A DNA stretch of 63,496 nucleotides, filler included, from Klebsormidium nitens (lineage: Eukaryota; Plantae; Klebsormidiophyceae): the NCBI GenBank assembly GCA_000708835.1. It is 4 parts of 4 records of this genome, joined end to end, with 100 filler letters (N's around TTAATTAATTAA, not from the genome) between each part and the next. Parts side by side here need not be neighbours in the genome. Positions count along the whole stretch, not along the records: positions 1 to 29,948 come from DF237777.1; 3 more parts are not named here. One strand, given 5' to 3'. A model generated the notes under the pieces. It had not been told where the DNA came from, made no database searches, and worked only from the letters and a program-made list of their open reading frames with translations. Made by a program: the position numbers and the translations under genes. This document shows positions 1 to 61,566 of this stretch, one piece after another; positions within the stretch are counted from its first letter, which is position 1; the number at the start of each line of letters is the position of its first letter.

Positions 1-170
1 AAGCCCCCTCAAACAGCGGCGTACCAAGGTCTTGCGTCTTCTTTTATACAATCTTAAAGGCCAAACCTTGGTACCTCACGGTGAACTATAACATCTTTCA
101 GAAACTCTGAGGTATGGCCGACCTTGCAGGCCTCCTCAGAATCTCTAAGGCATGGCCAACGTACTTGCAC
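1..170 (-). repeat. ~127-bp palindrome-containing repeat family, copy truncated by window edge
   Basis: Its reverse complement closely matches the units at 8852-9216 (gttrtagttcaccgtgaggtaccaag...tataaaagaagacgca...tggtacgcc.ctgtttgaggg). Perfect internal inverted repeat gtaccaaggt (21-30) / accttggtac (65-74). Confidence 0.9.
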
Positions 171-824
171 CCCTTTGCAGATCTTCTGTACGCGCGCGCT
201 GGCCGCAACAGCCTCAACCTCAACGTGTGCTACGATGCTAGCCCCCCCCGCAGCGCCCATCCATGCGAGCTGTGGCGTGCCCGAGTCGGATTGCGGCAAG
301 TCCAGCCCCGCCGCAGGCCAATTATCACTCCACAGTCGCAAACGAGTCTGAGATGTTCTGGGACTCTCGGGTCCCTTGACCAAGGGGCTGATAGGTGAGG
401 AATCTGTGTTGGACTTCGTTGTTGTTGCAAGTTGATTGGGTCACGTGCCTACGCGCTGCCAACCCGGCAACATTGAAGTCCGTGAGTTGCGGGGCACAAT
501 CATCATGTCTCGATCCGAGCAGTATATGTCACTGCAATACAGGCACCCTCCTCATGATCAGCGGGATCGAGAGCAACCCCGGGATGTCGCAGAATCCGGA
601 CACCCCAGGCGGCTCACGCGGACGGCACTTATTCACCATCCCGTCTTGGCAGGTACGTGGCAAACAACCTTTGTACAGCTGTGTCATGCACCGCTGTCGA
701 AGTTGCCTCCATGCTACTCCAAGAGCTGTTTGTCCTACCAGGATAGCAGAATCATCTCATTTTCATGATGTGAGCGAGTGCTAGAAGCATTGCGTCAAGA
801 ACTCACGCCATCATCAACGTGCAG

Positions 825-3800
825 GAGGTCCACGAAAGCAGTCGGCCAGCAGCACTTCACACTCAGTTGTTCGAGGAGTGGCAGCGGCAGGTGAGAGTGT
901 CTCGATGGACGAGTCTCAAGCATACTCGTTCGCGTGTGCTTAGGTCCGATCCAAGGGAACTGCCATCATCATGTGCACAAGTTTCAACCAAGAGAGGTCT
1001 CATTGAGGGGCACCCATTCTCATGTGCAGAGGTCTGGTCGAAGGGCAATAGTGTTCATGTGAAGAAGTCTGTTTGAGAGGCAATCGTTCTCATGTGCAGA
1101 AGTCTGATTCAGGGCCAGAAGCGTCAGCCCGCTCCACAAGCCAGCCAACTCAGTCGGGGGTGGAGCAGCCGATCGCGCTAGGATTCAGCGCGGAGGTGAG
1201 TGTCCTTGACGCTCTTCAATTGCTGCAAGGCAAATGGGCTTGAAGAGCTCGCCTTTAAGGGCCTCCTCTCTGTCCGGGTCATTGTCTAGGAAGTCCTCAA
1301 AGAGCAGACAAGGTTGTCGCTTGAGCGGCGCTCAAATCCCCCTACTAGCATGAATTTTCGAAAAAGTCATGGCCACTACAAAGCCCTCAGGTCGTCGCAT
1401 GTGCCCTTTCCGCAGAGGTGCCTGATAGCGAATGCGGCTGCATCTTGAAAGTCTGCTGCTGCCCCCAGAGTGTCTCTGTCATCGGTCGGAGTTGCCTCTT
1501 CTGTGCGCCCTTTGTCCCTAAGCTCCCTACCCAAAATTGTTGCTGCCTTGCAGGCGGGCCCCTCCTTCAGCGCCCCGCGTCCTGCTACCGATCCCCGTCC
1601 TGCTACACAGCTGGCACCTGCGGTGAGTCCGCTTGCCTGATAGTGACAGCCAGAGGCATCTTGACGATGATCTTGTCGTTCTCGACGCTGATCGAACCCT
1701 TGTCGCTTCGATTTGCGCCCTTCCAACTGACGGTCCCGCTCAGCTCTACTCTCCAAACGGCAAAGAAGTGGGAGATGAGGTACTCCAGCCAGCTCACATA
1801 GTCATAGAACTTCTCGCCTTTGTCCCATACTAGAGCGCGCTTGTTGGGCGTAATTGTCCACTGGCAGTAGTAAGAGGGGTACTTCTCCGAGAGGGAGTCG
1901 AACCCCTCACCAATGTACAAGCCCTTGATCACCTCTCGCTCGATCTTGACCGGACGCTTCTCGGAAACTGCATAAGGTAGCTTCAGGTCGTCCTGGTGGC
2001 AGTGATCGTGCACTGCATCCATTGTGGCTCTCTCCTTGGCAGTCAGGGGTCGAGAAAAGGTGAAGCGGCCGGTGAATCTGGTGTCGTAGCCCATGGTGCG
2101 ATGCCATTTGAGAGCTACAACGTTCTCCTAAGTCCGTGTATGTAACGCAGTTCTAGTGCTTGCGTGCAGGAGGTCGCAGAGGTTGCAGGCAGGAAGAGGG
2201 CAGCCTCGAGCAGGGAGAGCTCCCCGCCACCCCTTGGTACTAGGAAACGAACCGGAAGCCCAGATGAAGCGGTGAGCTGCAATCTGCGTTTATGTTCTTC
2301 AATCTTGAAGGAGGAGCTCTGGCGCCTGTTGCTTGCGCATGGTGACTGCAAGGGCTCGAGGCATGTTTGGGTTTGCCTGAGCATAAAGCATAGGCTCTGT
2401 TTCCAATGAGGCTGGGCTGGCCACCCTGGGTTTGCCACCGTCTGCAAAGCAGCTTTCCCTTGAGTTGCTTTCAAGCCTGTTCTCTTTCAAAGTAGAACCG
2501 TAGAAATCCCGGTACATGCGCCGTCGACTGCAGGCTATTTTAGGTCCCTTGCTCATGACGATCATAGCAGCAGCTTAAGCCCTTCTTTCAATTGGAGCAG
2601 CATCCCCTGCATCGTTTTGCAGGAGGTGTATTTGGCACCACCCCCAATCAAGGTAGTGTTGAGCGCAACTATGCAGCCTCCTTTGCGAGTTGGCGCGAGA
2701 GAGATCGGCTTAGTCACTTCTCATGCTGCCGTTTTCTGTTCGTAGGCTATGCGCCACGAGCCAACGTCACGCGAGCCTATTCTCTCCAAAGAACTTTTGC
2801 CTCAAGGAGAGCGTGCTACTCCTGCCTGCGCGCATGCAGAAGTGAGTGCCCCATCCTCATCATTGCTAGTAGTATCCCTCCTCGTCATATAGGTCCGAAG
2901 ATTCCTCCAAGTCTCTGACATCGTGGAGGAGAGAAGGTTGGCCCTCCTCGCCCTCACTTGCGTAGAAGCGTATCAAGAACAACGAGCTAGGACCTTCCAC
3001 GTCGAAACTGAGCCCCTGTCTCCATTGCTTGAAGACGGCCACCCAATCGAGCCTTGTCGTTCCACTGCGGCATCCAAACTGTTGACAGGCGGCCTTGAAC
3101 GCCTTCGTAACGACTTCGAAAACCAGCCTGGCTGACTTGCAAGCACCTTTTTTGTCGTTGATAATGCCGAAGAGTTCTCCGATCTGCTCGTCTGACAGGG
3201 CTTGATCTAGGTTGGCAGCCATCAGCTCGAAACCTGCTGCTACTAGTGGTGAAGCATTCCCCTAAGTGTCCGTCAACTCACCTTAGATCCCCGCTCCTTG
3301 CAGGTTGACATCGATCCAGGAAGCACGCTGCTTCCGAACCTGAAAGACCCTCCGGAGTCTGAACTGGCTGAGTTTCTCGCTGAGAGGCGGGCCCAGGCTG
3401 CAGAGGGAGGCAAAGCTGCAGCCGCATCCACACAGGTGGGGGATACCGCATTTCTAGTGAATACGGGCTTGCCTGAGCAGAAGGCATAGGCTCTGTTCCC
3501 ATTGAGACTGCCCACTAAGCACCCTGGGCTTGCCACCGTCTGCAAAGCAGTTTCCCCTGCCAGAGTTTGTGATTTGCTAAGTGAGCAGCCACTGGCCGGC
3601 ATGTCATAATGAAGACCCAAGGCCATTCCATCTGCCTTGTTGAACATTCGCTTCCGCTACCCCGCAGGAGGTTGCAGCGGATTCCGATCAAGAGGCAACG
3701 TCCTTTGGCATTGAGGAGACGTCGGGGGAGTCCAAATCCGAGGAAGAGGCCACTTTCGCGGATTTTCAAGGCATCGACGACTCCATGCAGCCCGACGCAG

Positions 3801-6800
3801 GCAACCTGGACCTGTTTCGGGCGATGGACTTGAAGGAGGAGGCAAGACGTGGGCTGGCGGCGGAGACCGTCGATGATATGCTGGCCCCCATGCGGGAGGA
3901 GATGCGGAGGAGGCAGGCTCGAGATGAAGACAACGCCCAACCGTCGACCTCTGCGTAAGTAGCTTGCTTCTAAGAATACTGTGGAAAGTCTTCGAATCCA
4001 ACCAGGGGTAAAAGCGCTCCCGCATCCCAAGTCTTTGGTTGCCACTTATGCTCACCGGTTGACTCGTGCAAAGTACTAATCACTCATCAGCAATCATGTA
4101 AAGTTATGATCGGTTAACGATCCCAAGCATCCAAGCCCGCCAAGCTCTCTGATGAGCCCCATTGAGCAAGTGGTATTTCAGATCTGCCTTGATCACTCTT
4201 ACGAAATGTTGAGTGCTCTGTTTGGTACATTCTTTGGGGCATGGCAAGCCTAAGACGCAACACAGGCTCTTCGAAGATTGCATCTTTCCAAGGCGACGCT
4301 CAACTTGCTGTAGAAGTAAAAGGCAGTTCTCTGGTACATCTTGGGGGGTATGGCAAGCTCTCCAGAGCGAGAGAGGGTCTCATTTTTGAGCACGGCACAA
4401 GCACGCACATCGTTTCCCACGTCGGTAGCTTCCTATTGCGCTGAGCCTTCGACTGACTCTAACGCTCCCCTCATGCAGCACCCCGATGTATGAGGCGGCA
4501 GTGCCCGAGCCGGCGGTGCAGTCTGACGTGCTCACGGGCAACGAGGTCTTCAAGAAGGACGACTTCCGGGTGCTACGCGTGCGAGAGCATGGCACCAACT
4601 GCTTCCATCAGGTCGGGGCCAACCCTAGGGGCCGCCTTCCTGGCCCAAAGTTCTTTATGCAGCAAGAGGCTGCGCTCCTGAACCATGAAGCGCAGGTTGC
4701 TCTGCACAAGTGGTCTGGCAAGGTCGAGAACGGGGTTAGGATTTCGTGGCGCAGCTTTGCTTCGTACCCAGATTGGGAGACAGCGCGTTCACATCTTGAG
4801 GGGAAGCATGGGTCAGTGACTGAGATCATCCAGGACGGGAAGCCCTGCAAGCCCTACCTCGACCTCGATGGAAAACACGGGCTCCCCTTCAAGCGTCAGC
4901 CAGTAGTTGGGCCAGACGGAGAGGTCGTAGAGGGCGGGGTGAGGTACTCGGTGAAGGAGGTGATTGGGATAATTGAGGAGTGGGCCACCCGCATCTTTAT
5001 GAGCTACGGCTATGAGCTGGCGCCGAGCAGCTTTGTGTGGATCGAGAGCTCCGGCCAGGCTAAATTCAGCCTCCATCTCACCATCAACCAGCTGGCGCCC
5101 CGCCAGCTCGTCTTCGGCTCCAACACCGGGGGGGCGGCCCACTTTGCGCGGCGGCTCAAGGAGAGGCTGCGCCAGTGGCATTCCAGCATCGCCGCCCTCA
5201 TCGACCTCAACGTGTACACAAAGGATCGTGAGTGGCGGACCCCGGGAAGCGCCAAGGTGGAGAGGCCGGAGAGCGTTCTGGCATGCATCAACCGGGGCCA
5301 TTCGTGGAAGGATGCCCTGGTCACCTGGTTGGAGCCCTTCGAGGTGAGCAGCATCAGAACACCGGTCACAGCATAGGTGGTCCGCCGACTCAGCCACACT
5401 TTAGTGCACTGCAGCTTCTGACGCAATCGGCAAGGCAACAAACAAAGGTCGCCCTTTCCTTCCAGAATTGAAGGATGACACTGCTCTGAGTTCGGCCACC
5501 CGTACTTCCGTTGCAGGTGCCTTCCTAGGTTTGTTGCTCGCAAATTGCTGCTCTACAGGATCGTCCCTTTGAGAGAGCTCGGCTTTTGCTGCCATCCGTC
5601 ATGTCCGTTTCATTCCCGAAAGAAGGCAGGTATAAACCGTTCAGGAAGCATCTTGGCATCCTCTCCTGCTCCTCATCTCTGTCAAATGCGCTGCAGGCCC
5701 GCAAAGAGGTCAAGGTGCCGTTCCAGCTGCCGGAGAGGCTTCACGAGAAGTTCAAAAACCCTCGAGACATGTCTGAACGGGGCACTGAGCGCAGCTCCAA
5801 GAACGAGGAGTTCGTCAAGGCCCGCATGCTGACTCTTCTCAGAGAGCGCTTGCACCCCACCGCTTACGAGGAAGGCCCCGATCGCTTCAATTACAGCGAT
5901 CGCTCGGAGCCGTGCTACACGGGTCGGATCCATGAGAACCGCCAGAATCTAACCTGCCACCTCAACCCAAACGGTAAGATCTATGCCCTATGCTTCAGCA
6001 ACAACACTGAGGGCGGGGACTCACAGTTGCCGTGTGTTAGCAGGGCGTTCTGCCTTGGAGACTTGTTCGAGGACAACATCTCGTTTGAGGCTGGCGCTGT
6101 TAAGGTGGACATGCAGCACCTTAAGCGGGTCCCAGGCGCGTCAACACCGGAGCTTGTGGCCGAAGTAGCAGCGGGTACGACGACGGCGGACGACCTGATG
6201 AAGCTGAACACATTCACTAACGAGTGAGCGACACTCTTCACAAAGCATGGCACTCCAAGTTCGTTGCATGAGGGATCTTGTCATCGATTGTTGCCAGCCT
6301 GCAGATTGGCGTTGATTATGCGGATTGCCTTTGAGCACGTGCATGCGCCCTCAACTCCAAGAGACACTCGTCTTACTTGACAACGTGCAGCATTCCTCAC
6401 TCATAATTAAGGCTCCTCGCAAAATCCCCTTGTGCCCCTCAGCAGCAACGAGGTTGACTTGTTCGCGTCCCAGGACGTGCCAGCACAGCAACGCTCGTGT
6501 TTACATTTCGCAGGTGGATCGCGGGCAAGTTTCCCCTCCTTGGCATCCGGTCAGGTGTGAACACCGGCAAGACGGTGCATTGCGGGGCGGTCTCGGACGA
6601 GCTTTATGAGCTGGTTCGGGAAGCAAGCGGCCGCCCCATGAGGACGGGCATGATCACTTACCGGGTGGCACAGGCCGAGGATCTCAAAGGGCGCTTTCAC
6701 CGCACTGCGAACTACCTCGATCTGAAGGCGGATTATGAGAACGAATGGTTCCAGGATCCGACTGATAAGCGCATTCTTCTAACAGCGCTCCAGTCTCGTG

Positions 6801-9800
6801 AGCAATTCCCGGAGATTGTAATTCAAGTCGACAGTCTTCTGAACCTTCGGCCTGATGGCATTGGTGAGGTTGCTCCGTTCGACCTCGTGATCTTGGACGA
6901 GGTGGCAAGCATCCTCGCGCATCTCTCGGCGGCGACCTTGAGAAATGGCATGGAGACTGCGGAGCTGTTCTTGGAGATTGTGCAACGAGCAAAGCGCGTG
7001 CTGGCCATGGACGACGGGTATGGGCAGCGGGAGCACGAGTTCTTCCGTCTTGCGAATGTGCCTGGAAAACTCATCATCAACACGAGAAGGGCAACGGTAG
7101 GCATCGAAACTCTCACCCACTCGGTCGTGTGTCTCAGCGCGCCCTTCGAGCTGGATTTGCTTGTCGCAAACTTGGCCATCAAAATTCTGGACGCTGAACA
7201 TCGACCAATGAAGGCTGTTTATCCTTTGGCTAGGATGGTGATGCGAGTGTCTATCTTAGTGCTTCTTCGCTTCCCCTCGTTGGTTCCTAGTCGCCCGCAC
7301 TTATGCGCTGTTGGTGACCGCTTTGCTAACATCTTGGCTTCGCCTAGCTACAGCTTCCAAAGCCTTTCTCGTTATGGCTCAGAAGGACCCCGCTCCTGGT
7401 ATGCAACGCTTTCAAGGGGCGCTGATATCGTTGAGCTCTTTCTGCGCAGGTTCCCCTTACCTTTCGCGTCTGTCAGGATGAGAGGGCGTGGCTGGAGCGG
7501 ATTGTCAGTGATCTTGCTGCTGGCAAGAACGTGGTCGTGGTCAGCATGTCTGCAAGGGTTTTAGAGCGCATCCAAGACCGGGTGATCACGCAGACCTCGC
7601 TCGGGCTCACAGAGAGCGACATTCTCATACACAGGCCCTAAGTGGGGGGGACAACACGGCTCTCTTGAGGAACGTCGCTGTGAACTGGAAGGTCCGTCTG
7701 CTCATGTACAGCCCAACCGTCGAGGCTGGCGTGAACTTCGACGAGGATTGGTTCCACACCAAATTCCTCTACATGTGCCGCAAGAGCACGACGGCTCGGG
7801 CAGCCTGGCAAGCGTCGCTGCGGGTCCGGCGAACGCAGAGCTCGCTGGTCCATTCTTTCGTCCAGGAGTCCATCTCTGTTGTGCTCGACTGTGCGCCAGT
7901 GATCCCAGCCTCCTGTCTTCACACTTATGGTCAGGTGAGCAGTCTGCTCATGGCAAACGGCGTTGCATGGCAGAGCGCACTCAAGATGCGGCTCGCATTA
8001 CCTTGCATGTTTGAGCAGCTTTAAAATTCTTCGTGAGCGCTGAGCTGTCCGTTCAGAGCTTCTGCCCAGTTGCAACTCGCTTGAGTTGGTGTCACGAGGC
8101 CTATTGGGCTGAAATCGGGGCCTCAATCTGAGCAATTGATCTGAAATTTACTCTATGAAAGTCCTTCGGGACTTCGTCCCCACACAGAAGCGCAGCCTGC
8201 TTGTGAAAACCAGAGCGTATGCTTATGACGGATCTTTCTCCACAGACTTCGACGGCGATGGCGGCGCGGACACCCGACTCAAGCGACGAGTCATCTTCGC
8301 AGGTATAGTTCGCACCATCCTACAGACCATCTCGTTCCTGCGTCATCTTGAAGTTGAGCGTATGTACAAGCTACTTGTACCGAGTTTAGCGTTCCGATTG
8401 CTTGAAGCTGAAGCTGGCACCTCGAGTCTCGGAGGGATGATGTGTCTGGATCTTTCTCCAACCACTAGGAGGGCAACCGCTTGGACGAGCAAGTTGCGGG
8501 CGGATCTTCTCTCGACCAGCCGTCGAGCCCCTACCAGCCAGCCGTGGAGGCTGCGACTTCGAAGCAGCAGCTCAAGGTAGGACATCAGGTCTCCCGTGCT
8601 TTTGGCTCTAGTGTGAATGTACAAAGTGTGAATTGCCAGAGGAAAGCGCAAATCCTTTTTCTTTGTCGTCCAGTCAAGTTAGTTCTGAGGATCACAGGGC
8701 ACGATCCGAGCACGATGTGACACGATGAGGCTGTATTCTCTTTGCGAGAACCTCTTTGGTCAGGTGAAAGATTGGCATGCGTTGCCAAGGAACTCAAAGC
8801 AACCTATGTGAGTGGGGCGCAAGGTCTGCTATGCCCTCAACATTTCGAAGGGTTGTAGTTCACCGTGAGGTACCAAGATTCGGCCTCTAATCTTGTATAA
8901 AAGAAGAAGCAGAATCATGGTACGCCTCTGTTTGAGGGATCCCTGCAAGGACGGCCATACCTCAGAGTTTCCTTCAGATGTTGTAGTTCACCGTGGCGTA
9001 CCAAGATTCGGCCTTTAAGATTGTATAAAAGAAGACGCAGATTCATGGTACGCCTCTGTTTGAGGGGCCTTGCAAGGTTGGCCATGCCTCAGAGTTTCCT
9101 TCAGATGTTGTAGTTCACCGTGAGGTACCAAGATTCGGCCTCTGAGATTGTTTATAAAGAAGTCGCAGAATCATGGTACGCCTCTGTTTGAGGGGCCCTG
9201 CAAGGTCGGCCAGGCCATGGTCTTTCTTTCCAAATCGCTCACATCAACCTTCTCGTTTGCAGCGGTCCTTCATTCCCCCACGCCGCGTCACCGTAGCGGA
9301 GACGCTGCAGTATCTACAAGCCTGCACCACCCATCAGACGGCTGCGTGGAGGCGGGTCCCTGCGCGCGCAGAGGGCTCTGCCCAACCTGTTCGGCTGATC
9401 GAGGACGGCCCCCTCTTCCGGGCCTTTGTGCACACCGAGGCGGAGCGGCAGAACTCTGACGCGCGGCTCCTTCAGGAATTCCAGCTGCAGTTGCGCGAGC
9501 TGGCCACGTGATAGAGATTGAGCAAAACGAGGAGGATTCGGGCAAGAGTAAGAAGCGGCGCGGGTTAGATCCAGAGGCTTTCAAGATCATCGAGGCGAAT
9601 GCGATCGATGAGGCGGAATATAGGCGGTTGAAGCGGTTGCGAGATGTGAAAAGGGACAGAGGGGCAGAGCACTTAGAGGTGGTTAGGTACGAGGCCTGCC
9701 AGTACTACGGCCTGAAGAACATTGACGAGCACTTCTTCAAGGAGACCCAAGCCGCCTTCAAGCCCCCGTTTTCGGAGCAGCTCGACTTCTTGAAGGTGAT

Positions 9801-10491
9801 AGTGAAGGGGAAGTTTCTTGACGAGGGGACGGTGGGTCGCAAGAGCAACGAGGTCGTCATGGTGGAGACTGCACGGACGTTGCTTCAGGACATGGGCCTT
9901 GCGCATGCATTCGACGTGGCTGGGGAGACTCGCTCGCTGCTGGAAGGCGGACTTAGAGATCGGCTGCTGAGGTCGGATCTGTTCAAAGGCCGCCCTACGT
10001 GCGCTGGTGCAAAAGCGGCAATGGGTGAGCGTGCCGTTTCTAAGATGTTTGGCATCGACTTGCCGGCACCCAGAGAGGGAAAAGCTCATCTCGACCCGGG
10101 CCAGTTCAAGACCGTAATAAATGAAGTGCTCGCGTTCATGGGCCTCAAAGTTGGGAAGCAGATCGAGGTGAAGCGTCCACGGCGAGGGAAAGGGAAGCAG
10201 AACGAGTCGGGGTCTGGAAATAGCGACTACAAGTACGAGCTGGAGCGAAAGTACGTTGTCAGGATGGCAAAGCTTGTCAAGTTGCAGTTTCGTGAAGTCC
10301 CTCGAGTCTGGCAGTATAGGGGGGAGCTGAGCCCCGCACTTCGAGAGTACCTCGACAGCGTAGATGCGAGTGACTTGGATCACCTGCTACGGAGGCCGTC
10401 TGGCCATCCGTTGTTGGAGAATCTTGCTGCGCCAGACGCATTGGGCGAGGATTGTATTATTAATCCGAGAAATAGGTTGCCGAGTGATTAG
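825..10491 (+). CDS. Multi-exon AEP/PrimPol primase - UL9-like SF2 origin-binding helicase fusion (two single-base frameshifts; possibly a pseudogene)
   Basis: Phase-consistent GT-AG chain traced by hand: 825-890, 1100-1195, 2170-2271, 2623-2652, 3304-3435, 3668-3954, 4479-5343, 5559-6223, 6514-7096, 7477-7934, (8188-8302?, 8469-8576), 9263-10491. AEP motifs KPYLDLD, FSLHL, IDLNVYTKDREWRTPGSAK. SF2 motifs GIRSGVNTGKT, VIQVDSL, LVILDEVASILAHL, YSPTVEAGVNFD..WFH. Frameshifts near 7635 and 9505. The 5' end and the 7935-9262 part are uncertain. Confidence 0.75.
985..1115 (+). repeat. ~35-bp tandem repeat (3-4 units) duplicating a splice-acceptor region
   Basis: catgtg occurs at 1021, 1056 and 1091, each followed by (c/a)aga(g/a)gtctg. 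The last unit supplies the acceptor at 1098-1099. Confidence 0.7.
1603..2094 (-). CDS. Intronless phage/giant-virus-type conserved hypothetical protein, nested antisense in intron 1196-2169
   Basis: MGYDTRFTGRFTF...YCQW...LVWDKGEKFYDYVSWLEYLISHF...LSGTVSWKG...DKGSISV resembles a phage/NCLDV hypothetical family (recognised by eye). ATG start, 163 aa. Confidence 0.8.
   Translation of the reverse strand: MGYDTRFTGRFTFSRPLTAKERATMDAVHDHCHQDDLKLPYAVSEKRPVKIEREVIKGLYIGEGFDSLSEKYPSYYCQWTITPNKRALVWDKGEKFYDYVSWLEYLISHFFAVWRVELSGTVSWKGANRSDKGSISVENDKIIVKMPLAVTIRQADSPQVPAV
2380..3560 (+). repeat. ~80-bp intronic segment present twice (about 2388-2462 and 3484-3558)
   Basis: gcataggctctgtt.cc.atgag...caccctggg.ttgccaccgtctgcaaagcag.tt.ccc occurs at both places. 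Confidence 0.8.
2866..3222 (-). CDS. Small intronless hypothetical protein nested antisense in intron 2653-3303
   Basis: 118-aa ATG-started ORF with globular-looking composition, lying wholly within a predicted intron. No family recognised. Confidence 0.5.
   Translation of the reverse strand: MAANLDQALSDEQIGELFGIINDKKGACKSARLVFEVVTKAFKAACQQFGCRSGTTRLDWVAVFKQWRQGLSFDVEGPSSLFLIRFYASEGEEGQPSLLHDVRDLEESSDLYDEEGYY
4479..5343 (+). CDS. Exon encoding the AEP (PrimPol, NCLDV-herpes clade-like) primase domain
   Basis: ORF 4486-5376 contains motif I (PYLDLDG), motif II (KFSLHL) and motif III (IDLNVY). Acceptor CAG at 4476-4478; donor GTGAGC at 5344. Confidence 0.85.
6514..7934 (+). CDS. Exons encoding the UL9/origin-binding-protein-like SF2 helicase core
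   Basis: Walker A-like SGVNTGKT, Walker B LDEV, QVDSL and YSPTVEAGVNFDEDWFH match the motif order of herpes UL9 and NCLDV origin-binding proteins. Intron 7097-7476. Confidence 0.8.
8852..9216 (+). repeat. ~127-bp tandem repeat x~2.9, intronic in the primase-helicase gene
   Basis: gttgtagttcaccg starts at 8852, 8980 and 9107. Each unit has the inverted repeat gtaccaagattc / ga(a/t)tcatggtac around an A/T-rich spacer. Confidence 0.95.
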
Positions 10492-10617
10492 ATTTCAAGA
10501 ATACTTGCTCGTGTTTGTGAATATCGGTAGGGCATAATTCTGCAATCACACGTCATACGCAAGCTGTCGTACAAATGAATGCATGTATAATTTCAAGACC
10601 TCATAGATAATAGAGAG

Positions 10618-11154
10618 TTGATGGACCGCATTCTCGACTTTCAACCGAAGAACCGTCTTGCAATCATGGATATGGATCGGGTAGTGCTCAACTCAACCAA
10701 ATCGGCAATACTGCGAGCATATCGTGAGAGTGGGGCAACTAGCATTACCTTAGATGTCGGGGCTTTGGCTGGAATTAGAGCCCTAGCACCTCCCTTCGAC
10801 ATGAGGCACATAACTCGTGAAGTCATGCGTCGATTGTGCGATGAGGGTTTTGATGCGGTATGGGACAACTCGTCTGCCAGTCTCTACACAATCCGTGTAA
10901 GTTGGCGACGCGCGCTGCGTACTTCACATATGGCAAAGAAGATGGGGCGCAATCAACACTATGTCTGCAATGCGTATAAACCAAGGCATCCGTCATTGTT
11001 GAGCAAATCACCGCGCTATGCAGAGCGGGGGTGCATGCAAGAACCTCATGTGCCGTCGGTTCGATGTCAAGAATCTATCGAAGATGTAGGCTTCGTTCCG
11101 GGTCTAGAGTACCTGGTCAATCCTGCTAAGATGAGTAAAAGCCAGCTCCAATAG
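10618..11154 (+). CDS. NCLDV-type conserved hypothetical protein (DUF5759-like pattern)
   Basis: ...PPFDMRHITREVMRRLCDEGFDAVW...IRVSW resembles the P.yd....yi...L...Gf.v....l.isW pattern of a conserved phycodna/mimivirus family. The family name is from memory and was not searched. Confidence 0.5.
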   Translation: MMDRILDFQPKNRLAIMDMDRVVLNSTKSAILRAYRESGATSITLDVGALAGIRALAPPFDMRHITREVMRRLCDEGFDAVWDNSSASLYTIRVSWRRALRTSHMAKKMGRNQHYVCNAYKPRHPSLLSKSPRYAERGCMQEPHVPSVRCQESIEDVGFVPGLEYLVNPAKMSKSQLQ

Positions 11155-11255
11155 GGCATGTGCATGCCACGAGTAAATGCGGAACGTTATCACCGAGCAG
11201 ATGATCGCTATACCTACATTGGTTGTACGGGCTGCGAGAGTTGCTGTTCTTTCTT

Positions 11256-11750
11256 CTACATGCTCTTGAGCTGCTTTTTCGAAATCCGATTGTCACATTC
11301 ATCCTCAATGTTTGGAAGTCTGTGAATTCGTTTGCCTTGATACATTCTCTTGTAGAAATCATCTACCTTCATCTTTAATGCAGAAGTCTTGTAGGTCCCT
11401 CGAAATGGCATATTCGCCGAAGCCTGCTGTTCCAATGGTAATGGAGCCAAAGTCACTTCGTATGCATATGTCTTATGATTGTTTCCTCTTGTCGTTTCCT
11501 CGGTTAGAACAGCAACTTTGTAGGGCATATTCACCTTTTCTTGCTTTTTCAAGGTCCGACAGATTGCGCTACCTGCCCGGGTACCAATCTGGCAAACACG
11601 CCCATTTGTATTGTCAATGTGGAAGCGGCCTTTGCTGAGAATATTAGATCGATCCACAACTCTCTTATTAACGATTTCAAATGCATTCAGTATGCGAAAC
11701 GAGCGAAGGTTTGAATGAGCTCCATCGAATTGGGAGGGTTCATCGATCAT
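11256..11750 (-). CDS. MC1-like DNA-bending/chromatin protein (NCLDV type)
   Basis: RSFRI...GRF.ID...GRVCQIGTRAGSAI...VLTEETTRGNNHKTYAYEV fits the RSF.../A..KA.../LRETTRGS.KK.Y.Y pattern of viral MC1-like proteins. Paralog at 45069-45662. Likely ATG at 11750 (the ORF track starts at 11954). Confidence 0.6.
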   Translation of the reverse strand: MIDEPSQFDGAHSNLRSFRILNAFEIVNKRVVDRSNILSKGRFHIDNTNGRVCQIGTRAGSAICRTLKKQEKVNMPYKVAVLTEETTRGNNHKTYAYEVTLAPLPLEQQASANMPFRGTYKTSALKMKVDDFYKRMYQGKRIHRLPNIEDECDNRISKKQLKSM

Positions 11751-12213
11751 CACTGGGGCTTTGTCTCTTAGAAGGAAAAAATGCTTCAGCTTTCTGAATG
11801 ACCCTGTAGCAAAATAGCTTTCTATTATGCGGCCCTGAGAGCTCAATGAGTTGGGCACAGCACACAAGATGCCTCGCGAGCAAGGAAAGGTGCAAGCACG
11901 GAAGTAGAGAATAAGGACCCCTAATGCACTTAAATCGTGAACGTGCTCCCTCACTAATTCTATCTTAAATGTATAATTTCCTGGAAATTTCCTATTTTTT
12001 TAAGGGGCCCTGTTGCGCTTTCTTCCGATTGATCTTTAGCATCACTATAAGCAATTCGAAAAATGTGACCTCCTCTCCTCACAATTCTGGATTGCTGAAT
12101 ATAACCGTTCCAATAACAAACAAAAGTGAACGGCTCATGGTTACGGAACCAACTCAAACCTCTGAGTGCGTTCCAAAATTGCAGAATTATTCTTGGCGTA
12201 ACATCATAGCAGC

Positions 12214-13341
12214 ATGGCTATGATATCAGCTGATTCCTCGACCGTTGACGAAGCATGCAACGGCCGTTCTGAAAGCAACGCAACCTGCTCCGAAAATATC
12301 AAAACGATACCAATATGCGGAGAACAGTATTGTCTTAGCGTCTTGCAAGACGGGTCGAATCGAGCGGCATCCACTTGCAGCCAATATGTCAACAGTCTAA
12401 CCGGGATCTATCGCGCACTCATGAGAAACGAAACAGCCGAATTGCCTGCCAGTATAGACTGGATTCGAGATGCTGCTAAAGTGTTGAATGTTATTAAGGA
12501 GCGAGAAGGCAGTGCTGAGAAGCCCTGGAGTCCTGGCAGCGTGTGCAACAAGCTCACTCCATTAATGGCCATATCGAAATCACAAAAGTGGACCGATGCT
12601 TATGAGCAGTATTACACAGCATTCATCTTGGCGAAGAATAAACAGCGAAACCAAACCATGTGCCAAATGCCCACTGAACGCGAGAAAGGAAATTGGATTA
12701 GCATGGAAGAGATAAAGGCAAAAGTGGAGGAACTTGGACGTAGAATCAGACGGCAGATTGTTCCCAATTATCAAATCGGGAAGCCTCTCGAGCGCAGCGA
12801 CATCAAAGTCGTCTTTCAGCACCTCATTTTGGCTGCAAACACGCTTGAGCCGCCAAAAAGAAGAGACTATAGTGACCTCCCCTTGCAGAAGCCGGACGGT
12901 TCGTTCTATAGTGTGGAAGCGCAGAACGTGTTTGAACAATCTGGAAACGTCATGAAGGAATGCTCAAAGGACTCTTTCGTGCTCACATTGAAAACGTTCA
13001 AGACCTCGGCAAAGTATGGCACTCAGGAGTTCCCATTGAGCAGACGCCTTTCGCAATACATCAAGCGATCTTTAATCCTTGTTCCGAGGCCGTTTTTCTT
13101 GACGAAACTGAATGACCTCACTAAACCTATCTCGGACAATCACTTGAGCCGGTTTATTGCAGATATTGAGTTTAGCAAAGGGAGATATCTGACCACAAAC
13201 CATTTGAGGCACATCTACATCTCAGATGCGTTTAAAGGCGACCATTCGATCTCTCAGAGGCAAGCTGTGGCGAAAAGAATGCTCCACGACTGGTGGACAG
13301 CAATGCAGAGTTATGAAAGGAAGCATCATGGAGGCGGCTAG
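12214..13341 (+). CDS. Tyrosine recombinase (PLV/NCLDV-type)
   Basis: All catalytic-type residues in order: PPKRRDY (R), FKTSAKYG (K), NHLRHIYIS (HxxR), MLHD (H), QSY (Y). 375 aa, intronless. Confidence 0.88.
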   Translation: MAMISADSSTVDEACNGRSESNATCSENIKTIPICGEQYCLSVLQDGSNRAASTCSQYVNSLTGIYRALMRNETAELPASIDWIRDAAKVLNVIKEREGSAEKPWSPGSVCNKLTPLMAISKSQKWTDAYEQYYTAFILAKNKQRNQTMCQMPTEREKGNWISMEEIKAKVEELGRRIRRQIVPNYQIGKPLERSDIKVVFQHLILAANTLEPPKRRDYSDLPLQKPDGSFYSVEAQNVFEQSGNVMKECSKDSFVLTLKTFKTSAKYGTQEFPLSRRLSQYIKRSLILVPRPFFLTKLNDLTKPISDNHLSRFIADIEFSKGRYLTTNHLRHIYISDAFKGDHSISQRQAVAKRMLHDWWTAMQSYERKHHGGG

Positions 13342-13415
13342 ACTTCACATAACAATGATGGACTCGTTTTAAAGCTTCTCTTCCGACTCTTGAATTCTCG
13401 TACTAACTGCTAGCA

Positions 13416-13745
13416 TTATGATGCCTCAATAGTGGCTAAAGCGCTTGGAATCATGTGAAAGGGTTCTTCGCGGCTTAGATGAGGGCCTAAAACATTGGCT
13501 TCGATTGTGAAACCAGCATCTTTCAACTTGATCAATGTCCGTTTCTGTGGTTTGATGCCCTTTAGGTATCTTGCGTACGCCTTGCTTAACAGGATTGAAT
13601 CTTTGTTCCTCTGATAGTATCGCCTCACTGACATGCAATGCTGTTCGGGGTGCATCTTTCGATATTGACGTTGTGAGCAGCACGTGTGGCACTCGCAGCT
13701 TGTTGCTTCGTTGGAAGGTGCCTCTATGTTGCCGTTGCTAGCCAT
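13416..13745 (-). CDS. Small basic helical protein (RRYYQRNKDSILL motif), putative DNA-binding
   Basis: Likely ATG at 13745, divergent from the D5 gene. Homologous to 44185-44598 (YYQRNK..ILL vs WYQRHK..ILL; TLIKLKDAG vs TISKLKEAG). Confidence 0.65.
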   Translation of the reverse strand: MASNGNIEAPSNEATSCECHTCCSQRQYRKMHPEQHCMSVRRYYQRNKDSILLSKAYARYLKGIKPQKRTLIKLKDAGFTIEANVLGPHLSREEPFHMIPSALATIEAS

Positions 13746-13751
13746 TTGTGA

Positions 13752-16700
13752 TTGGATCACTACAAGCAAGCCACGAAAATATTTCAGCGACGGCTCGACC
13801 GCACGCGTTCAAATATGGCCATTGATTATTTCCTCAACCAAGATGAGGATCCAAGTTTGTCTGCCATGGCCTTTGAAAGTCCCACGAGCACCCCCCAGCA
13901 CGTTGCTTCTGATACTAATGATCATGCTGCAGCGGTGCCCGGAGCTTCCAACAATGTTGTAGGCCTAAGGTCCCAAGGGGCCAAGGGGCCTCTCCCTGAG
14001 CTCCCAAGCCCTAGTGCCATTGGACTTGAGATCCAACGGCTCTGCGATCATGGGCTATTTTCAATTCCCGTATGCCTCCGCTGGGATTCGGATGAAGGCA
14101 GGAAAAAACCAATATTCCCTAAGAAATACGAACACATCAAAACCAAGGAGTCATGGTGGAAGTCAATCAACCAAGCAATGGAGGAAAGGCGATTCGATGC
14201 GAACGGGCTTGCCATTCTAACAGGAGTTAGTGGTCTGTTTTGTATCGACATCGATATCTCTACAAAAGATGAGAAAAGCAAGCGCCCGGGGATCGAGCTC
14301 TGGGAGCAACTTGTCCATGAGCACGGAGAACCGGAAACGCTTCGGGCAAGGACGGGATCAGGGGGCATTCATCTGTACTTCAAGGCCGACTCCCCGGGTT
14401 TGAAGCGGAAAAGGAACTTTCAAGGCGTAAAGGTTAACGGTGAAGCCTACGGTATCGATGGAAGGGCGGCTGGAGGAGTAATTTTTGCTGAGCCAACAAG
14501 CTATGTGAACGGCCAAGGTGAGCTTGCAATCTACCGGTGGGAGACTGAGAACGGGCCTCCCAGCTACGAGGCATGCCGAGAGATGCCCGTGTGGCTGACG
14601 GAGCTGGCGAATAACCCCAACGGCCATGGCCACGCAGCTGCAGGCGAGGAAGAAGAAGAGACAGGTGACGAAACTCAAGCAGCGGATACCAATGCGCCGC
14701 CCTCCAACATGACCATTAGTCCAAGCAATCAACGAAACGGCAATACAGAAGCGTCACATGGCAAAGAGCTTTTGTTGAAGGAACAATCGGAGATGCTTAA
14801 GGAAATCGGCGACTCAACGAGCACTTTTGCAAGCACACTCTCGCATGGGCTCTATGGAACCTACTATTGCTATCGAACGCATGGGCCACGGAGGTGCTAT
14901 TTGGGACACATGCACTCCGGAAGCAACAACTTCAATCTGCTGAAGAGAGGCCGCAAGATCTACTATCGCTGCCACGGTGACGACTGCTCCCACAAGCCGG
15001 CCAAAAAGCTCGGGGTCCTAAGCCTCAAGGCTGCCTTGCAGGATGCTACTGCAGAGCCGGTCGATCCTGATGACGATATGCAAGCGATTACCAAGTACAC
15101 CCGAGGCAGTCAAGAGGTGCAAGACTTACTTCTACGCATCGTTATTGAGCATGCGGCTCCCAAGGCCTTTGCCAATCTGGGACGTCTATTTGCTTATTTG
15201 TATATGATCGAGTGTCGGATCCTTGCAACTACAAACGAGACGGAGAAGAGTCGAGATCAGATATTCTTTGTATGGAACGGGACCTCTTGGGCACAAGACA
15301 CATCCAACCTGGTCATGGACGTATTCACAAGTCAGATGGGCTGTCTGTTGGCATGGTATGAGAAGCAGCGAGAGAGGTGCTTGAGCACCTTGTGCGCAGG
15401 CCGCCCTGAATTAGAGGGTTTTGTGGTCGGTGGCGTCCTACAGTCTCTCGATTCCAAAGAGGTCGATTCCAAGCAGGCGAAAAAGGTTAAGATGGCTGTG
15501 GACTCATGTATAAAAGAGCTAGAGAAGACCATGCCAAGCTTTGGGAAGATCAATGTGCAGGATCCCGCTGATGTTCGCAAGTGCATGCATTCCGTGGTAC
15601 CTAAGTTGCACGTGAAGGGATTGCTCGACCTGTTCGATCAAGACCCGACAGTTGCAAATGCTCAGAACGGGCTGATCGACCTTATAACGGGTGCTCTGCT
15701 TTCCCACCACCCCCAAGATCTCTGCAACAATCAGACTTGCAAGTACATTTCCGGCGCGTCCACACGATCAACCGCCCGATTTCAAACGTTCTTAATGGAT
15801 ATCCTCCCACCGGAGGCGATCAAGTGGCTCCAGATGTTTCTGGGATACTGCCTGACGGGAGAGACATCGGAGGAACTCTTAGTGATTGCCAACGGGCTAA
15901 GTGGAGCGAATGGTAAAAGCGCGCTGAAGGGAGCGCTTGAAAGGGCATTCGGAAGCTATGCTTGCCCTGGTAACAAAGCCATCTTTATGAAGCCTTCATT
16001 CAAGGCCAATGGTTCCGCGGCATCGAGTCACCTGATGCAGATTCGGACCAATAGATTCGTCTCATGTGACGAAAGCGATGGAGTCGAAGAGCTCCATGCA
16101 TCATTCTTGAAGGAGGCGAGCACAGGAGGTAGGATCAACGCACGTGAGCTGTTTTGCAAAGCACAGAGCTACGTGCCGCAATACAAGCTTTTCCTATTTA
16201 CGAACTATCGGCCACACTTTCCAAGTGATGACACCGCCCTCATTCGGCGGATGGTTCTCATGATGTTCAACTACACCTTCAAAACCCCAGACAAGCTTGA
16301 TGCAAACAATGAATGGCACAAGCCCATTGATGTGAGCTTGAAGCCCTACTTCGAGTCGGATGAAGGAGCAGCTGACACTCTAGACTTTTGCGTTCGGGGA
16401 GCAATCATGTATTATGCTGAAAAGGAGCTTGCACCCAGCTCAAAGGTTCTCTCCCCTATTCCGAAGGCGTTCATGGCTGCAGTCGACGAGTATGCTGAAG
16501 AGAACGACAAGCTTCAAGCGTTCATTGACGAGGCTTGCACAACCAAGGGCGCGAATCTCAGTGTTGCCAAATCTGATTTCGTTGAGGCCTTCACGACTTT
16601 CTTGTATGCGGGCGGACATGATGTGACTTTGGCGGGCGACGGATTGGCAAGAGCGATGTGCTTGAAAGGATTCTCGCAGAAGCCGCCAGGAGGGGGAAAC

Positions 16701-16832
16701 AATCCAATGATAAGGACCCTCGATGGTAAGAAACGGGGAAGAGGCTTCTTTGGGATCCGTTTAAAGACCGACGAAGAACTTATGGAAGCGGCTAAGAAGG
16801 ATCCCGACCCTAAACAGCCTGATACAACATGA
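13752..16832 (+). CDS. Prim-Pol (bifunctional primase/polymerase) + Cys/His domain + D5-like SF3 helicase
   Basis: N-terminal LFCIDID, TGSGGIHLYF and IDGRAAGGVIF. D5_N-like DPTVANAQNGLIDL. Walker A GANGKS and Walker B FVSCDES. Later TNYRP and RRMV motifs. 1026-aa intronless ORF; first ATG at 13815. Confidence 0.92.
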   Translation: MDHYKQATKIFQRRLDRTRSNMAIDYFLNQDEDPSLSAMAFESPTSTPQHVASDTNDHAAAVPGASNNVVGLRSQGAKGPLPELPSPSAIGLEIQRLCDHGLFSIPVCLRWDSDEGRKKPIFPKKYEHIKTKESWWKSINQAMEERRFDANGLAILTGVSGLFCIDIDISTKDEKSKRPGIELWEQLVHEHGEPETLRARTGSGGIHLYFKADSPGLKRKRNFQGVKVNGEAYGIDGRAAGGVIFAEPTSYVNGQGELAIYRWETENGPPSYEACREMPVWLTELANNPNGHGHAAAGEEEEETGDETQAADTNAPPSNMTISPSNQRNGNTEASHGKELLLKEQSEMLKEIGDSTSTFASTLSHGLYGTYYCYRTHGPRRCYLGHMHSGSNNFNLLKRGRKIYYRCHGDDCSHKPAKKLGVLSLKAALQDATAEPVDPDDDMQAITKYTRGSQEVQDLLLRIVIEHAAPKAFANLGRLFAYLYMIECRILATTNETEKSRDQIFFVWNGTSWAQDTSNLVMDVFTSQMGCLLAWYEKQRERCLSTLCAGRPELEGFVVGGVLQSLDSKEVDSKQAKKVKMAVDSCIKELEKTMPSFGKINVQDPADVRKCMHSVVPKLHVKGLLDLFDQDPTVANAQNGLIDLITGALLSHHPQDLCNNQTCKYISGASTRSTARFQTFLMDILPPEAIKWLQMFLGYCLTGETSEELLVIANGLSGANGKSALKGALERAFGSYACPGNKAIFMKPSFKANGSAASSHLMQIRTNRFVSCDESDGVEELHASFLKEASTGGRINARELFCKAQSYVPQYKLFLFTNYRPHFPSDDTALIRRMVLMMFNYTFKTPDKLDANNEWHKPIDVSLKPYFESDEGAADTLDFCVRGAIMYYAEKELAPSSKVLSPIPKAFMAAVDEYAEENDKLQAFIDEACTTKGANLSVAKSDFVEAFTTFLYAGGHDVTLAGDGLARAMCLKGFSQKPPGGGNNPMIRTLDGKKRGRGFFGIRLKTDEELMEAAKKDPDPKQPDTT

Positions 16833-17299
16833 TACAACAATCTCGTCATCTTCAGACGGGCGTGTATCAGCTTTAAAAGATCCAGTTTTCCTCTCGAATT
16901 AGCGCTATCATGATGCCAACGGACCGGAGTTATGTGTCAAAAAAAGGCCATGTGTCTCCCAAATCATGCAATTGTGGCGAGCCGTTCTGCAATCTGGCCA
17001 GTGGGGGTTGATACAATTGATACAAGATACAACATAAAATTGTCAAGAATATTGTTAAAGTGAAATGTCTTCACAACATAATAGGGCAATCCTTTGCCAG
17101 AGTCCAGTGTATCAGTTGTATCGGCTCCCATTGCACCAATCTCGCCTCTTTCGCGCTCGCACATGCAAATGCGTGCAATGCGGACCTTCATTGCAACAAT
17201 CGAGAGCGTGGGAAACCGTTTTTCAACCGTTTAAAGCCATCTAATCTGCTATATAGAGCGTGATACATACCGCGATTGGTGTATCAGCTGTTGTATCGA
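16820..17299. repeat. Cluster of at least 11 GATACA/TGTATC motifs in both orientations (iteron-like)
   Basis: (t/a)gataca at 16820, 16830, 17009, 17018, 17025 and 17261; tgtatc(a/g) at 16863, 17108, 17117, 17280 and 17292. Confidence 0.8.
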
Positions 17300-17416
17300 C
17301 GTAAGAGCATGCTGCAAGTGCATTGGTGTGTCACGTTACCTCACAAGACTCCTTCTTGAACTTCGAGGCCATATAGAAGTGTTGCCAAGGTGGGCAACTT
17401 GGAATGCTCATGAATA

Positions 17417-20400: not shown

Positions 20401-22094
20401 CCGCACGGCGCCCAAGGATTGCAAGGTCTGGGGCCGCAAAAGTGTTGGACCTGGTCCCGTTGCCTGACCCCTTCCTCTCCCCAGCGCTCGCAGAGGCTGG
20501 TGACAGCCACCCCCCCTTGGCTCATGACCGTGTTGACCTTCTTGTGGCTGTGGCCCATATCGAGAGCAGCAGCAGAAGAGCACTCCCACAGCTCGAGGGT
20601 AGCTTGATGCGTGCACGCGCCCTTGAAATCAGGCCGTCGGCACACAGGGTGGTTGCAGACCAGGAGCTTCCTCGCTCCCGCCTCTCGTTGCTCCTGCCTC
20701 TCTGCTCGCCTCTTGGTGAGAGTCGGGCCCTTCCCATTGTGTGCACCATCTGCAACGGGGCCCTCAAGTCCAGACGTTGCCAACTCTGAGAGCACCCTCG
20801 AGAGGTGTCGGCACCGGTCCGCACCATTGCAGTCCACGTGGCTACAGTGCGTACTCTTGCCCCCCAGCACGCAAAGTACAGGCTGCTCTCCCCGATCACA
20901 CACGACAAAGACGCGAAGTTGTGGACCGCCACCCCACGCCTCTGCGTCTAGTCCGTAGAGAGGCGTCCCAACACGCCCCCATTGATCTAACGGCAACACC
21001 CACTGCACGCCTCCTCTTGTGACTTCGTGCACAAAGGACCGACTTTCGTTGAAGGAGGTGAAGTTGGCAAGCCCTCCTTGCCACCAGCCGTTCAACAAAC
21101 GAGTCTCTTCGAGGAAGCTCGTCTCATGATCTCTGCACGCCCTCTGCCCGCACACGCACGCAGTTTTCCCCGTATGGTCGATCTTAACGAGCCGCGGCAC
21201 GTTCACGAGCCCCTTGTCTGTCATTGAAACGTCCAAAAGGCGCCCGTCTGAGGCCAACTGTGGTACCAAGAAGAGGCCAGGGGCAATGGCCATTGGTGGA
21301 ATCTTGCTTCGAGCGAGCTCCGCCAGGATGGCCATCCGCCCAAGCTCCAATGGCGCCGGCCCTTCTTCGAGCCCCCTCTTAATTCCACGCTTAGAAGTTG
21401 CCTTCGGCTCGGTGCAATACGTGCAAGGCGCGAGGTCTCTTCGTTGGACGAAGAAGTGGTGCCCACCCTCTGTAGCCGCCTCCCCTGATCGTGCCTGGCG
21501 CAGGTCATTCCTCTCAGGAAAGACCTCGAATTTCGCGAACAGGTCCCGTTGAGGGATGGCGCATCCCGTCTTCTTCGATACAAAGGGCCGTCCTCCGACG
21601 TACTCGGCCTCAACACAACGGATGCACAAGAGATGCCCCCCAGCGCCAGGGCAGATGACCGCCCCACCTCGGTTGCGCTTCCGCTCCCAAATGAAAGGCT
21701 CTTGACCTCGGGCATAGATCGGGTTCTTCCCAAGGCACGTGCTCCCCATGCAGGCAGTGCCGAACCCGTTCCGAGCAAAGGCCTCCGTTTGACGCAGTTG
21801 AAAGGCGAGCCCATAGTCAAAGACGAACTCATCGAGCCCCTGCTGAGCAGCATATGAGGCCCGCCCCCCGCGCACGCCGCCAGCATTTGGTGGAGGTGGG
21901 ACGGCTGCTGGGACGCTCTTGATGTCCGAAAAGGTTGGGGATGGGCCTTCAAAGTGGACAGCAGCGTAGCTCCGCACCGCTTGCCCGGCTGTTAGAGAGG
22001 CGTGTAGAGCGACCGAGGCGGCTGGAGTGGTCGAAGCGAGCAGCACGGTGCTAGCTAGCTCCAGAGGGTCTTGAGTTGATGAAAGAGGCTCCAT
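17417..22094 (-). pseudogene. KDZ (Kyakuja-Dileera-Zisupton) transposase with Cys-rich/SWIM-like and CxC domains; one frameshift and one in-frame stop
   Basis: Exon 22094-20262 ends YDGQ|gtgagt and splices in frame to EDGIFNF at 19499. Catalytic region: ITFDGT, GVFIACC..R..G, GESVSDL..VLLTRF, EDAACN, VDRFH, HTCS, SEGINS. Frameshift near 19125; TAG at 18238-18236 is in frame with the downstream ORF. Confidence 0.85.
19592..20164 (+). CDS. F-box-like + XPA-like Zn-finger/DNA-binding protein, nested antisense in the KDZ intron
   Basis: N-terminal VLNII...LDIEDLSNAACTC (F-box-like), then CTIC...VCRDC and LTTMEARRKYRVRDL...RFYL, as in the XPA core. Intronless and wholly inside intron 19500-20261. 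Confidence 0.55.
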   Translation: MDTNAHLGLVLNIIGENGKLDIEDLSNAACTCTDARDYVESRLHEYPQSTRAPLPGPHPCGEVLPMQKCTICKQSDFCFHWPFPHLLGVAVCRDCIARKYGVLGCLTTMEARRKYRVRDLSRLPWVPTPEPPYKARFYLKSSIVLRALQEKNESRDLRKARGASSKRAMARSKMKEACEAFTPPDDLHRL

Positions 22095-22524: not shown

Positions 22525-22622
22525 ANNNNNNNNNNNNNNNNNNNNNNNNNNNNNNNNNNNNNNNNNNNNNNNNNNNNNNNNNNNNNNNNNNNNNNNNNNN
22601 NNNNNNNNNNNNNNNNNNNNNN
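22525..22622. other. Assembly gap
   Basis: Run of N. Confidence 0.99.
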
Positions 22623-61556: not shown

Positions 61557-61566
61557 AGGATCGACC

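Follow-up and report, generated by a model that had tools for sequence, protein, structure and literature searches.

The window analysed here, a stretch of 63,496 nucleotides of DNA from the alga Klebsormidium nitens (GenBank assembly GCA_000708835.1), consists of four scaffolds joined by linkers of N and TTAATTAA at 29949, 46185, and 54422. Its first scaffold (DF237777.1), which ends at 29948, opens with a spliced gene whose predicted product is an archaeo-eukaryotic primase (AEP) followed by a zinc finger and a UL9-type superfamily 2 (SF2) helicase, with the catalytic motifs intact. The helicase exon is 100% identical to the K. nitens protein KFL_008280010. We hold with high confidence that the family to which this gene belongs is real, spliced, and virus-derived.

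The primase-helicase gene and its transcripts

A sequence-only reading of this DNA had traced an AEP domain, a Cys/His linker, and a UL9-type helicase in one frame over about 12 exons. The single spliced frame is borne out by RNA joints and by protein profiles; the exon count is 16 in all, of which seven (exons 10-16) encode the catalytic part. The exons are as follows.

1..394, + strand: exon 1; 5' end undefined, upstream frame with a stop at 349 and several upstream ATGs
543..652, + strand: exon 2; first in-frame ATGs at 554 and 584, and a StopGo/2A-like motif with Met in place of the last Pro
825-890, 1100-1195, 1554-1622, 2170-2271, 2746-2841, 3304-3435, and 3668-3954, + strand: exons 3-9; A/E/S/P-rich extension, predicted to be largely disordered
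4479..5343, + strand: exon 10; AEP primase, with motif I at 4849-4869, II at 5062-5079, and III at 5200-5217
5697..6223, + strand: exon 11; C-H-C(-C) zinc finger at 5913-6041, plus linker
6514..7096, + strand: exon 12; SF2 lobe 1, with Walker A at 6551-6574, motif II at 6887-6904, and motif III at 7004-7015; Herpes_ori_bp
7450..7934, + strand: exon 13; helicase lobe 2, with motif V at 7707-7742 and VI at 7809-7829; assembly error at 7632
8246-8302 and 8469-8576, + strand: exons 14-15; low-complexity insert
9263..10545, + strand: exon 16; one-base frameshift at 9490-9493 and stop at 9509, C-terminal domain (9490-10488) out of frame, poly(A) at 10545

In contigs covering 200-11200, 15 GT..AG joints connect these exons in all three RNA-type runs and in none of the one DNA run (one further joint of this set is not displayed), and in one run a loose end with poly(A) is seen at 10545. 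The three 3' joints were seen again in three more runs and were missing from DNA run X3 (contigs on 7400-9760). Because the joints are missing from the DNA and a poly(A) end is present, the transcripts can be taken as real. The six spliced runs represent six studies; the run types (DNA or RNA) are guesses of the tool, X19 being labelled “DNA?” yet spliced, and contig depth cannot rank expression. The contigs are built from short reads, and that the exons make up a single molecule is deduced from the chain of joints together with one open frame (352-7638, 1055 codons), which primase and helicase share from 352 through helicase motif VI, allowing for the assembly error at 7632. The sequence-only reading had also described many small, mostly phase-0 exons ahead of the domains, and indeed introns 2-8 are all in phase 0, as are 12 of the 14 introns in the coding frame.

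The 5' end of the transcript lies upstream of 825, where that reading had begun the gene, and contigs cross position 200. The protein probably starts at ATG 554 or 584, and the upstream ATGs together with the stop at 349 could reduce translation. RNA depth is 0 at 10843-11200, a value that we take, like the low depth in intron 5, as lack of cover. Position 278 is C in all three RNA-type runs and T in both the window and DNA run X1, which may be a strain difference, an assembly error, or editing; at 8842 and 8889, within intron 15, there are small differences between the assembly and run X1, further signs of assembly error.

Frameshifts had been suspected near 7635 and near 9505, and the two proved to be of different kinds. 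We take the former for an error of the assembly: five of eight runs, including DNA run X3, show an additional base at 7632 at full depth, whereas X1, X5, and X6 gave no row. The latter is real and was placed at 9490-9493 by comparison with five paralogs. Contigs of all four runs that span this site (X3, X13, X18, and X19) cross it with no gaps and no other letters, so the frameshift is present in both genome and RNA. The frame therefore stops at 9509, the window copy loses its last ~330 residues, with the C-terminal domain lying out of frame behind the helicase, and the predicted product from ATG 584 has about 1263 amino acids. A programmed -1 frameshift at 9490 was considered and rejected as unlikely, as 9441-9512 contains no XXXYYYZ heptamer. 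The public model KFL_008280015 bypasses the break by a predicted intron, and this joint is absent from the three spliced runs in the 9490 region, although contigs drop rare forms and one joint of the contigs on 200-11200 is not displayed. According to the available text of PMC12543377, the C-terminal domain of herpes simplex virus (HSV) UL9 binds the origin and a truncated form retains helicase activity. By analogy, the window copy would have lost site recognition, and it is likely to be an ageing, non-autonomous copy that keeps the primase and the helicase core.

The domain assignment draws on several kinds of comparison. Exon 12 matches Herpes_ori_bp (PF02399; E 3.7e-8, above the cut-off), its sole Pfam match, and no Pfam family was matched by the AEP exon. 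A profile built from 19 relatives outside Klebsormidium gave 170 bits to the AEP exon, 118 to the zinc-finger exon, 130, 50, and 73 to the helicase exons, and 55 to the out-of-frame C-terminal open reading frame (ORF); for the latter, ESM Atlas returned no usable match. In the PDB, matches of the family profile are limited to the origin-binding protein (OBP, 2e-34) and PrimPol (2e-11). The 1054-aa protein of the window itself was modelled by AlphaFold with a mean pLDDT (predicted local distance difference test) of 72.5, low over most of the first 330 residues. The best match of the model is human PrimPol (E 2.8e-10), and among SF2 helicases HSV OBP is narrowly ahead of XPB, in a model that covers only helicase lobe 1. 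AEP motifs I-III, the Cys/His ligands, the Walker A lysine, the DE residues, and the motif VI arginines are intact and near-invariant across the family (motifs I-III in 20 relatives). A Gly-to-Leu change in motif VI was weighed as a sign of inactivity and rejected, for Gly stands there in only 58 of 116 relatives.

Exon 2 encodes a motif similar to the StopGo/2A peptides, which part of PMC6249498 treats. A (V/I)ExNPG word stands upstream of the primase in nine of 13 K. nitens models, its last residue being Pro in four, Trp in three, and Met in two, the last two being the window copy and its closest paralog. The full StopGo core, (D/G/C/N)(V/I)ExNPGP as given in the available text of PMC12846837, is found in three of the 13 paralog models, whereas the window copy departs from it by its final Met, and skipping is unlikely there. 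Between the two Klebsormidium subfamilies described below, the 2A-like region is 30-46% conserved and its flanks are not conserved. A similar word occurs at an internal site in P0066, a protein not named as Klebsormidium. StopGo in an element of a streptophyte would be unusual, given that the same part of PMC12846837 reports no natural use by plant viruses.

Copies, relatives, and probable viral origin

By protein names, members of the family lie on at least 15 K. nitens scaffolds, in lists limited by clustering and length filters. Several copies are annotated as partial or truncated; the full C-terminal domain is present in five of the 13 paralog models, with motifs kept, and P0003 and P0009 retain the domain too. 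The two subfamilies, A and B, are ~33% alike in the core and form one branch (SH-like support 0.987 with 78 rows; SH-aLRT 98 with 25 of those). Members of the two (P0014 and P0008) have in common an unannotated N-terminal module, 54% alike over 67 aa, and P0014 contains a ubiquitin-like domain besides. Metagenome fragments of subfamily B that are the size of an exon end and begin at the position of intron 11 (near 6223), which suggests that this intron may be old and common to both subfamilies.

Of 1.84 billion proteins searched by phmmer with the paralog P0006, 1586 matched at E 0.001, and among the best 150 of these the nearest outside relatives are mostly single-ORF metagenome proteins of 1030-1200 aa, 31-39% alike, together with a Tetrabaena socialis protein and an “Astpho2” protein. 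Locus searches with single proteins (P0010 in metagenomes and P0006 in viral contigs) gave no loci; an alignment-based search gave one viral and 77 metagenome loci. In the 14 of these 78 that were inspected, the genes are long ORFs with no sign of splicing, some of them split, and no spliced gene like that of Klebsormidium was seen. Their neighbours include T5orf172, PriCT-2, collagen, ankyrin, and HNH genes, and a model of the relative P0013 best matches “replication origin-binding proteins” of giant viruses (E 1.5e-59). It is because of these neighbours and fold matches that we regard the outside loci as viral, and we infer from them a viral origin of the Klebsormidium gene, whose likely donor is a green-algal giant virus. 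As a separate observation, one 96-kb metagenome contig carries two split primase-helicase copies (L014 9980-13470 and L032 9857-13565).

The sequence-only reading had called the gene viral in type, related to UL9, and eukaryotised, and the introns, the Herpes_ori_bp match, the OBP profile match, and the tree all agree with this. AEP and helicase do not appear to lie on separate transcripts, and the helicase appears closest to UL9/OBP and not to a cellular family, in trees that took in no cellular SF2, R8, or F1055L row. It does not correspond to stand-alone UL9/OBP, being fused to an AEP, and the RVKNL motif of UL9 is absent from the C-terminal ORF (9460-10488). Nor does the locus resemble a giant endogenous viral element, which would be intron-poor, gene-dense, and equipped with core genes of nucleocytoplasmic large DNA viruses (NCLDV): the gene has 15 introns, and 30 ORFs scanned in the window include no match to capsid, PolB, A32, or VLTF3, the only such gene nearby being D5-like. 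A multicopy Klebsormidium clade set among intronless, virus-like proteins appears to be new.

The transposase, the dyad arrays, and the rest of the window

The features that bear on how the gene may move are the following.

17417..22094, - strand: KDZ (Kyakuja-like) transposase gene of two exons, oriented towards the primase-helicase; its frame as assembled is interrupted by a stop at 18236-18238 and changes near 19110
1..138, - strand: left array of ~1 unit, at the start of the scaffold and over the 5' end of the primase-helicase gene; dyad boxes at 21-74
8852..9216, + strand: intron 15 array, a 128-bp tandem of 2.9 units with three dyad units; its likeness to the left array, inverted, is 84-87%
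22208..22525, + strand: right array with three dyad units, in inverse orientation to the left array and followed by a 97-N gap

The transposase gene carries D, DxxC, DxFH, and E-x-x-N motifs at 19114, 17806, 17731, and 17605, a KDZ-type acidic motif set, together with a CxC4-like cluster. Its CxC4 matches are weak, below the cut-off in six of 13, and Pfam KDZ itself is not matched; a paralog of the protein, P0199, scores 0.95/0.93 to KDZ clusters in ESM Atlas. On the opposite strand of its intron lies a 206-aa Cys-rich ORF (19544-20164, + strand) with no family match.

Related arrays thus stand at the 5' ends of both the primase-helicase and the transposase gene, in inverted order. In all seven units, inverted 8-bp boxes flank a spacer of 38-39 nt that is 62-74% AT. 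Between arrays, the boxes are 88-92% alike, the spacer 54%, and the flanks 73-74%. The dyad pattern was derived from the same sequence, so a shuffle control says little, and the evidence is the contrast between boxes and spacer. Such arrays have the anatomy of OriS, yet would also fit as transposase sites. A search for the pattern in viral contigs gave more than 120 scattered matches with varied spacers, which were read as chance.

Two transposase paralogs, KFL_008920030 and KFL_009560030, lie on the scaffolds of the primase-helicase paralogs KFL_008920010 and KFL_009560010; in other words, a listed primase-helicase partner is present on two of the 16 other transposase scaffolds, hidden cluster members included. 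Under a length-proportional null, with a genome size of 104 Mb, this has P 0.005, and restricting the eligible scaffolds to between 1200 and 300 small ones gives P 0.004-0.055. The KFL_00956 pair is the closest to that of the window, with 87% in the primase-helicase core and 82% in transposase exon 1 (against 54-70% in other copies). Co-duplication is therefore likely for some copies as judged from these likenesses, and most transposase copies seem to be without the cargo, in copy lists that are both incomplete and come from a fragmented assembly. The longest contig given for a metagenome transposase and that given for an AEP exon both measure 77,436 bases, and the two may be one contig.

The first scaffold contains two further features next to or within the primase-helicase gene.

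1603..2094, - strand: 163-aa ORF without introns, lying within intron 5; matches the phage family phrog_38666 (E 1.5e-20), RNA depth 0-2
10546..17400, + strand: lower-GC block without introns, carrying a recombinase-like ORF, a Prim-Pol/D5 gene, and short repeats

The nested ORF has variant copies in DNA contigs. The block has a GC content of 0.48, against 0.55 and 0.59, and is probably a separate insertion. Its genes are an ORF (12202-13341) that we take to be a recombinase from its motifs, with no Pfam, PHROGs, NCBIfam, or PDB match, and a Prim-Pol/D5 primase-helicase (13752-16832, 1026 aa), whose stop is followed by about ten GATACAA-type short repeats in both orientations (16821-17297), resembling a replication origin or an element end. 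The claim that three viral-type primase-helicases lie within 45 kb is an artefact of concatenating four scaffolds: two are on the 29.9-kb first scaffold, and the second D5-type gene (40-44 kb, with a Prim-Pol match) is on the second. That gene is split (40047-43946), with inverted 54-55-bp tandem arrays before it (39391-39752) and inside it (41897-42105). Host-like tandem F-box DNA begins by 22779, past the right array and the gap, and tandem units of ~3.2 kb with F-box-like ORFs, taken as host DNA, fill 22779-29948. At 50235-51752 (+ strand) there is a 505-aa ORF with Cys/His and acidic motifs, transposase-like by impression only and with no Pfam match, and Copia-like and gypsy-like retroelement ORFs occupy 53356-54138 and 56342-63024 (- strand) on the third and fourth scaffolds.

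A proposed transposon around the replication gene, and rival readings

The reading that we prefer, and to which we give roughly even chances, is that the spliced 16-exon virus-derived primase-helicase is carried inside a large KDZ-type DNA transposon. It is favoured by the assignment of the transposase to KDZ, by the gene pair on two other scaffolds, by the likenesses of the KFL_00956 pair, by the inverted arrays at the 5' ends of both genes with their conserved boxes, and by the host-like DNA past the right array. In intact copies, the enzyme would be freed from the peptide upstream of it by the StopGo/2A-like motif and would dock through its C-terminal domain on the inverted 8-bp boxes of the arrays. 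Its helicase would melt the AT-rich 38-bp spacer and its AEP would make primers that a host polymerase would extend, and the resulting copies would be inserted by the KDZ transposase. That the gene replicates the element from the dyad arrays is a tentative proposal. It is likewise possible, though doubtful, that we are dealing with an undescribed class of large, intron-rich, self-priming transposon, in which a KDZ transposase is combined with a StopGo-released giant-virus primase/origin-binding helicase, OriS-like end arrays, and the use of host polymerases.

Several observations weigh against carriage by a KDZ-type transposon. KDZ elements have 5'-CA..TG-3' termini and 7-8-bp target-site duplications, and neither termini nor duplications are seen here, the left end being off the scaffold and the right end adjoining an N gap. 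The left and right arrays are only ~67-81% alike, below the likeness of left and intron 15 arrays. In transposase exon 2, other copies come nearer to that of the window (up to 84%) than the KFL_00956 copy does (78%). Of the 16 listed K. nitens transposase copies, 14 have no listed primase-helicase on their scaffold, a listed transposase is missing from 12 of 14 other scaffolds with a primase-helicase, and the most conservative null reaches P 0.055. Finally, none of the 78 outside loci has a KDZ-type gene, so that any association arose in the Klebsormidium lineage.

The fifteen introns and the transcription suit a host gene as well as a transposon, and it may be, although we think it somewhat unlikely, that a single viral capture followed by intron gain produced a domesticated host gene family with a role in DNA repair or repriming, which spread by segmental duplication of repeat-rich regions and dragged the KDZ neighbour along. 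Such a family would account for canonical introns and a poly(A) end in runs of six studies, for an intron position apparently common to subfamilies so far apart in the core, and for catalytic motifs that have been kept. It accords less well with the many copies, several annotated as partial or truncated, with a window copy that is broken beside a transposase that is also broken in the assembly, and with the 2A-like motif and terminal-type repeat arrays, which are features of selfish elements. The primase-helicase might, on the other hand, be a mobile or episomal unit of its own, plasmid- or transpoviron-like and replicated from the dyad arrays, with the KDZ gene or the recombinase/D5 block as neighbours or helpers. 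The closest pair of arrays, at the left end and in intron 15, lies wholly within its gene, most transposase copies have no listed partner, and the recombinase-like ORF and the D5 gene adjoin it; we nevertheless regard this as unlikely, for a related array also stands at the transposase 5' end, the gene pair recurs twice with the same numbering (010 and 030), and the block differs in GC and is without introns. A decaying, functionless relic of a giant-virus insertion that is transcribed by accident seems improbable. The real frameshift, the frame broken upstream of the 2A-like motif, and the lost terminal Pro would fit it, as would the NCLDV genes that passages of PMC5294986 report in Klebsormidium, but fifteen introns are precisely spliced, five paralogs have the full C-terminal domain with motifs and P0003 and P0009 keep the domain, the subfamilies have kept the 2A-like region but not its flanks, and the scanned window ORFs include none of the four NCLDV genes sought.

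A second, SF2-based type of one-protein replicon, as the sequence-only reading had proposed, would not be new as an architecture, since chains of AEP and UL9-like SF2 helicase have been described in mimivirus R8, African swine fever virus (ASFV) F1055L, ostreid herpesvirus 1 (OsHV-1), and some mriyaviruses (SF2_hel), as stated in the available part of bioRxiv 10.1101/2024.02.29.582850. These enzymes, of which R8 and F1055L were compared through that description and not by sequence, resemble ours in that an AEP with its catalytic motifs stands at the N-terminus and is joined to an SF2 helicase related to UL9. The Klebsormidium gene differs from the R8/F1055L type in being nuclear and multicopy, with 15 introns, a disordered extension of more than 300 aa, a 2A-like motif, a KDZ neighbour, and no capsid genes seen. 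What escaped the same reading was that the family is multicopy, that a KDZ-type transposase lies nearby, that exon 2 holds a 2A-like motif, and that the window copy is truly truncated.

HSV-1 UL9 belongs to the same helicase family, and the two inverted boxes of the arrays flank an AT-rich spacer in a manner analogous to OriS; in contrast, UL9 is without a primase and the box sequence differs (available text of PMC12543377). Polintons and casposons are self-synthesizing transposons with their own family B DNA polymerase. As in these, a transposase or integrase is here paired with a DNA-replication enzyme, which in this case is a primase-helicase, and among the window ORFs scanned no polymerase or capsid was found on the scaffold, whose left end is cut. 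The likeness to KDZ elements, which are known to carry cargo genes (TET/JBP), lies in the motifs and the CxC4-like cluster of the neighbouring transposase, whereas Kyakuja are without terminal inverted repeats and the arrays here are inverted, and the available text of PMC12730594 mentions no primase cargo. In a literature search of partial coverage that left subscription journals and Repbase outside, neither this family nor a KDZ element bearing a primase-helicase was found to be described.

If the primase-helicase does travel in a KDZ-type transposon, a cut-and-paste superfamily would have gained a replication initiator from a giant virus, and with it a route of replicative amplification distinct from those of Polintons, casposons, and Helitrons, in a model alga near the land plants. 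The window family also offers a candidate natural StopGo site in a streptophyte, and a cultured host in which the poorly studied enzymes of the R8/F1055L type could be assayed on candidate binding sites. Even if no transposon is involved, a replication gene of giant viruses has gained 15 introns, multiplied, and remains transcribed in this alga.

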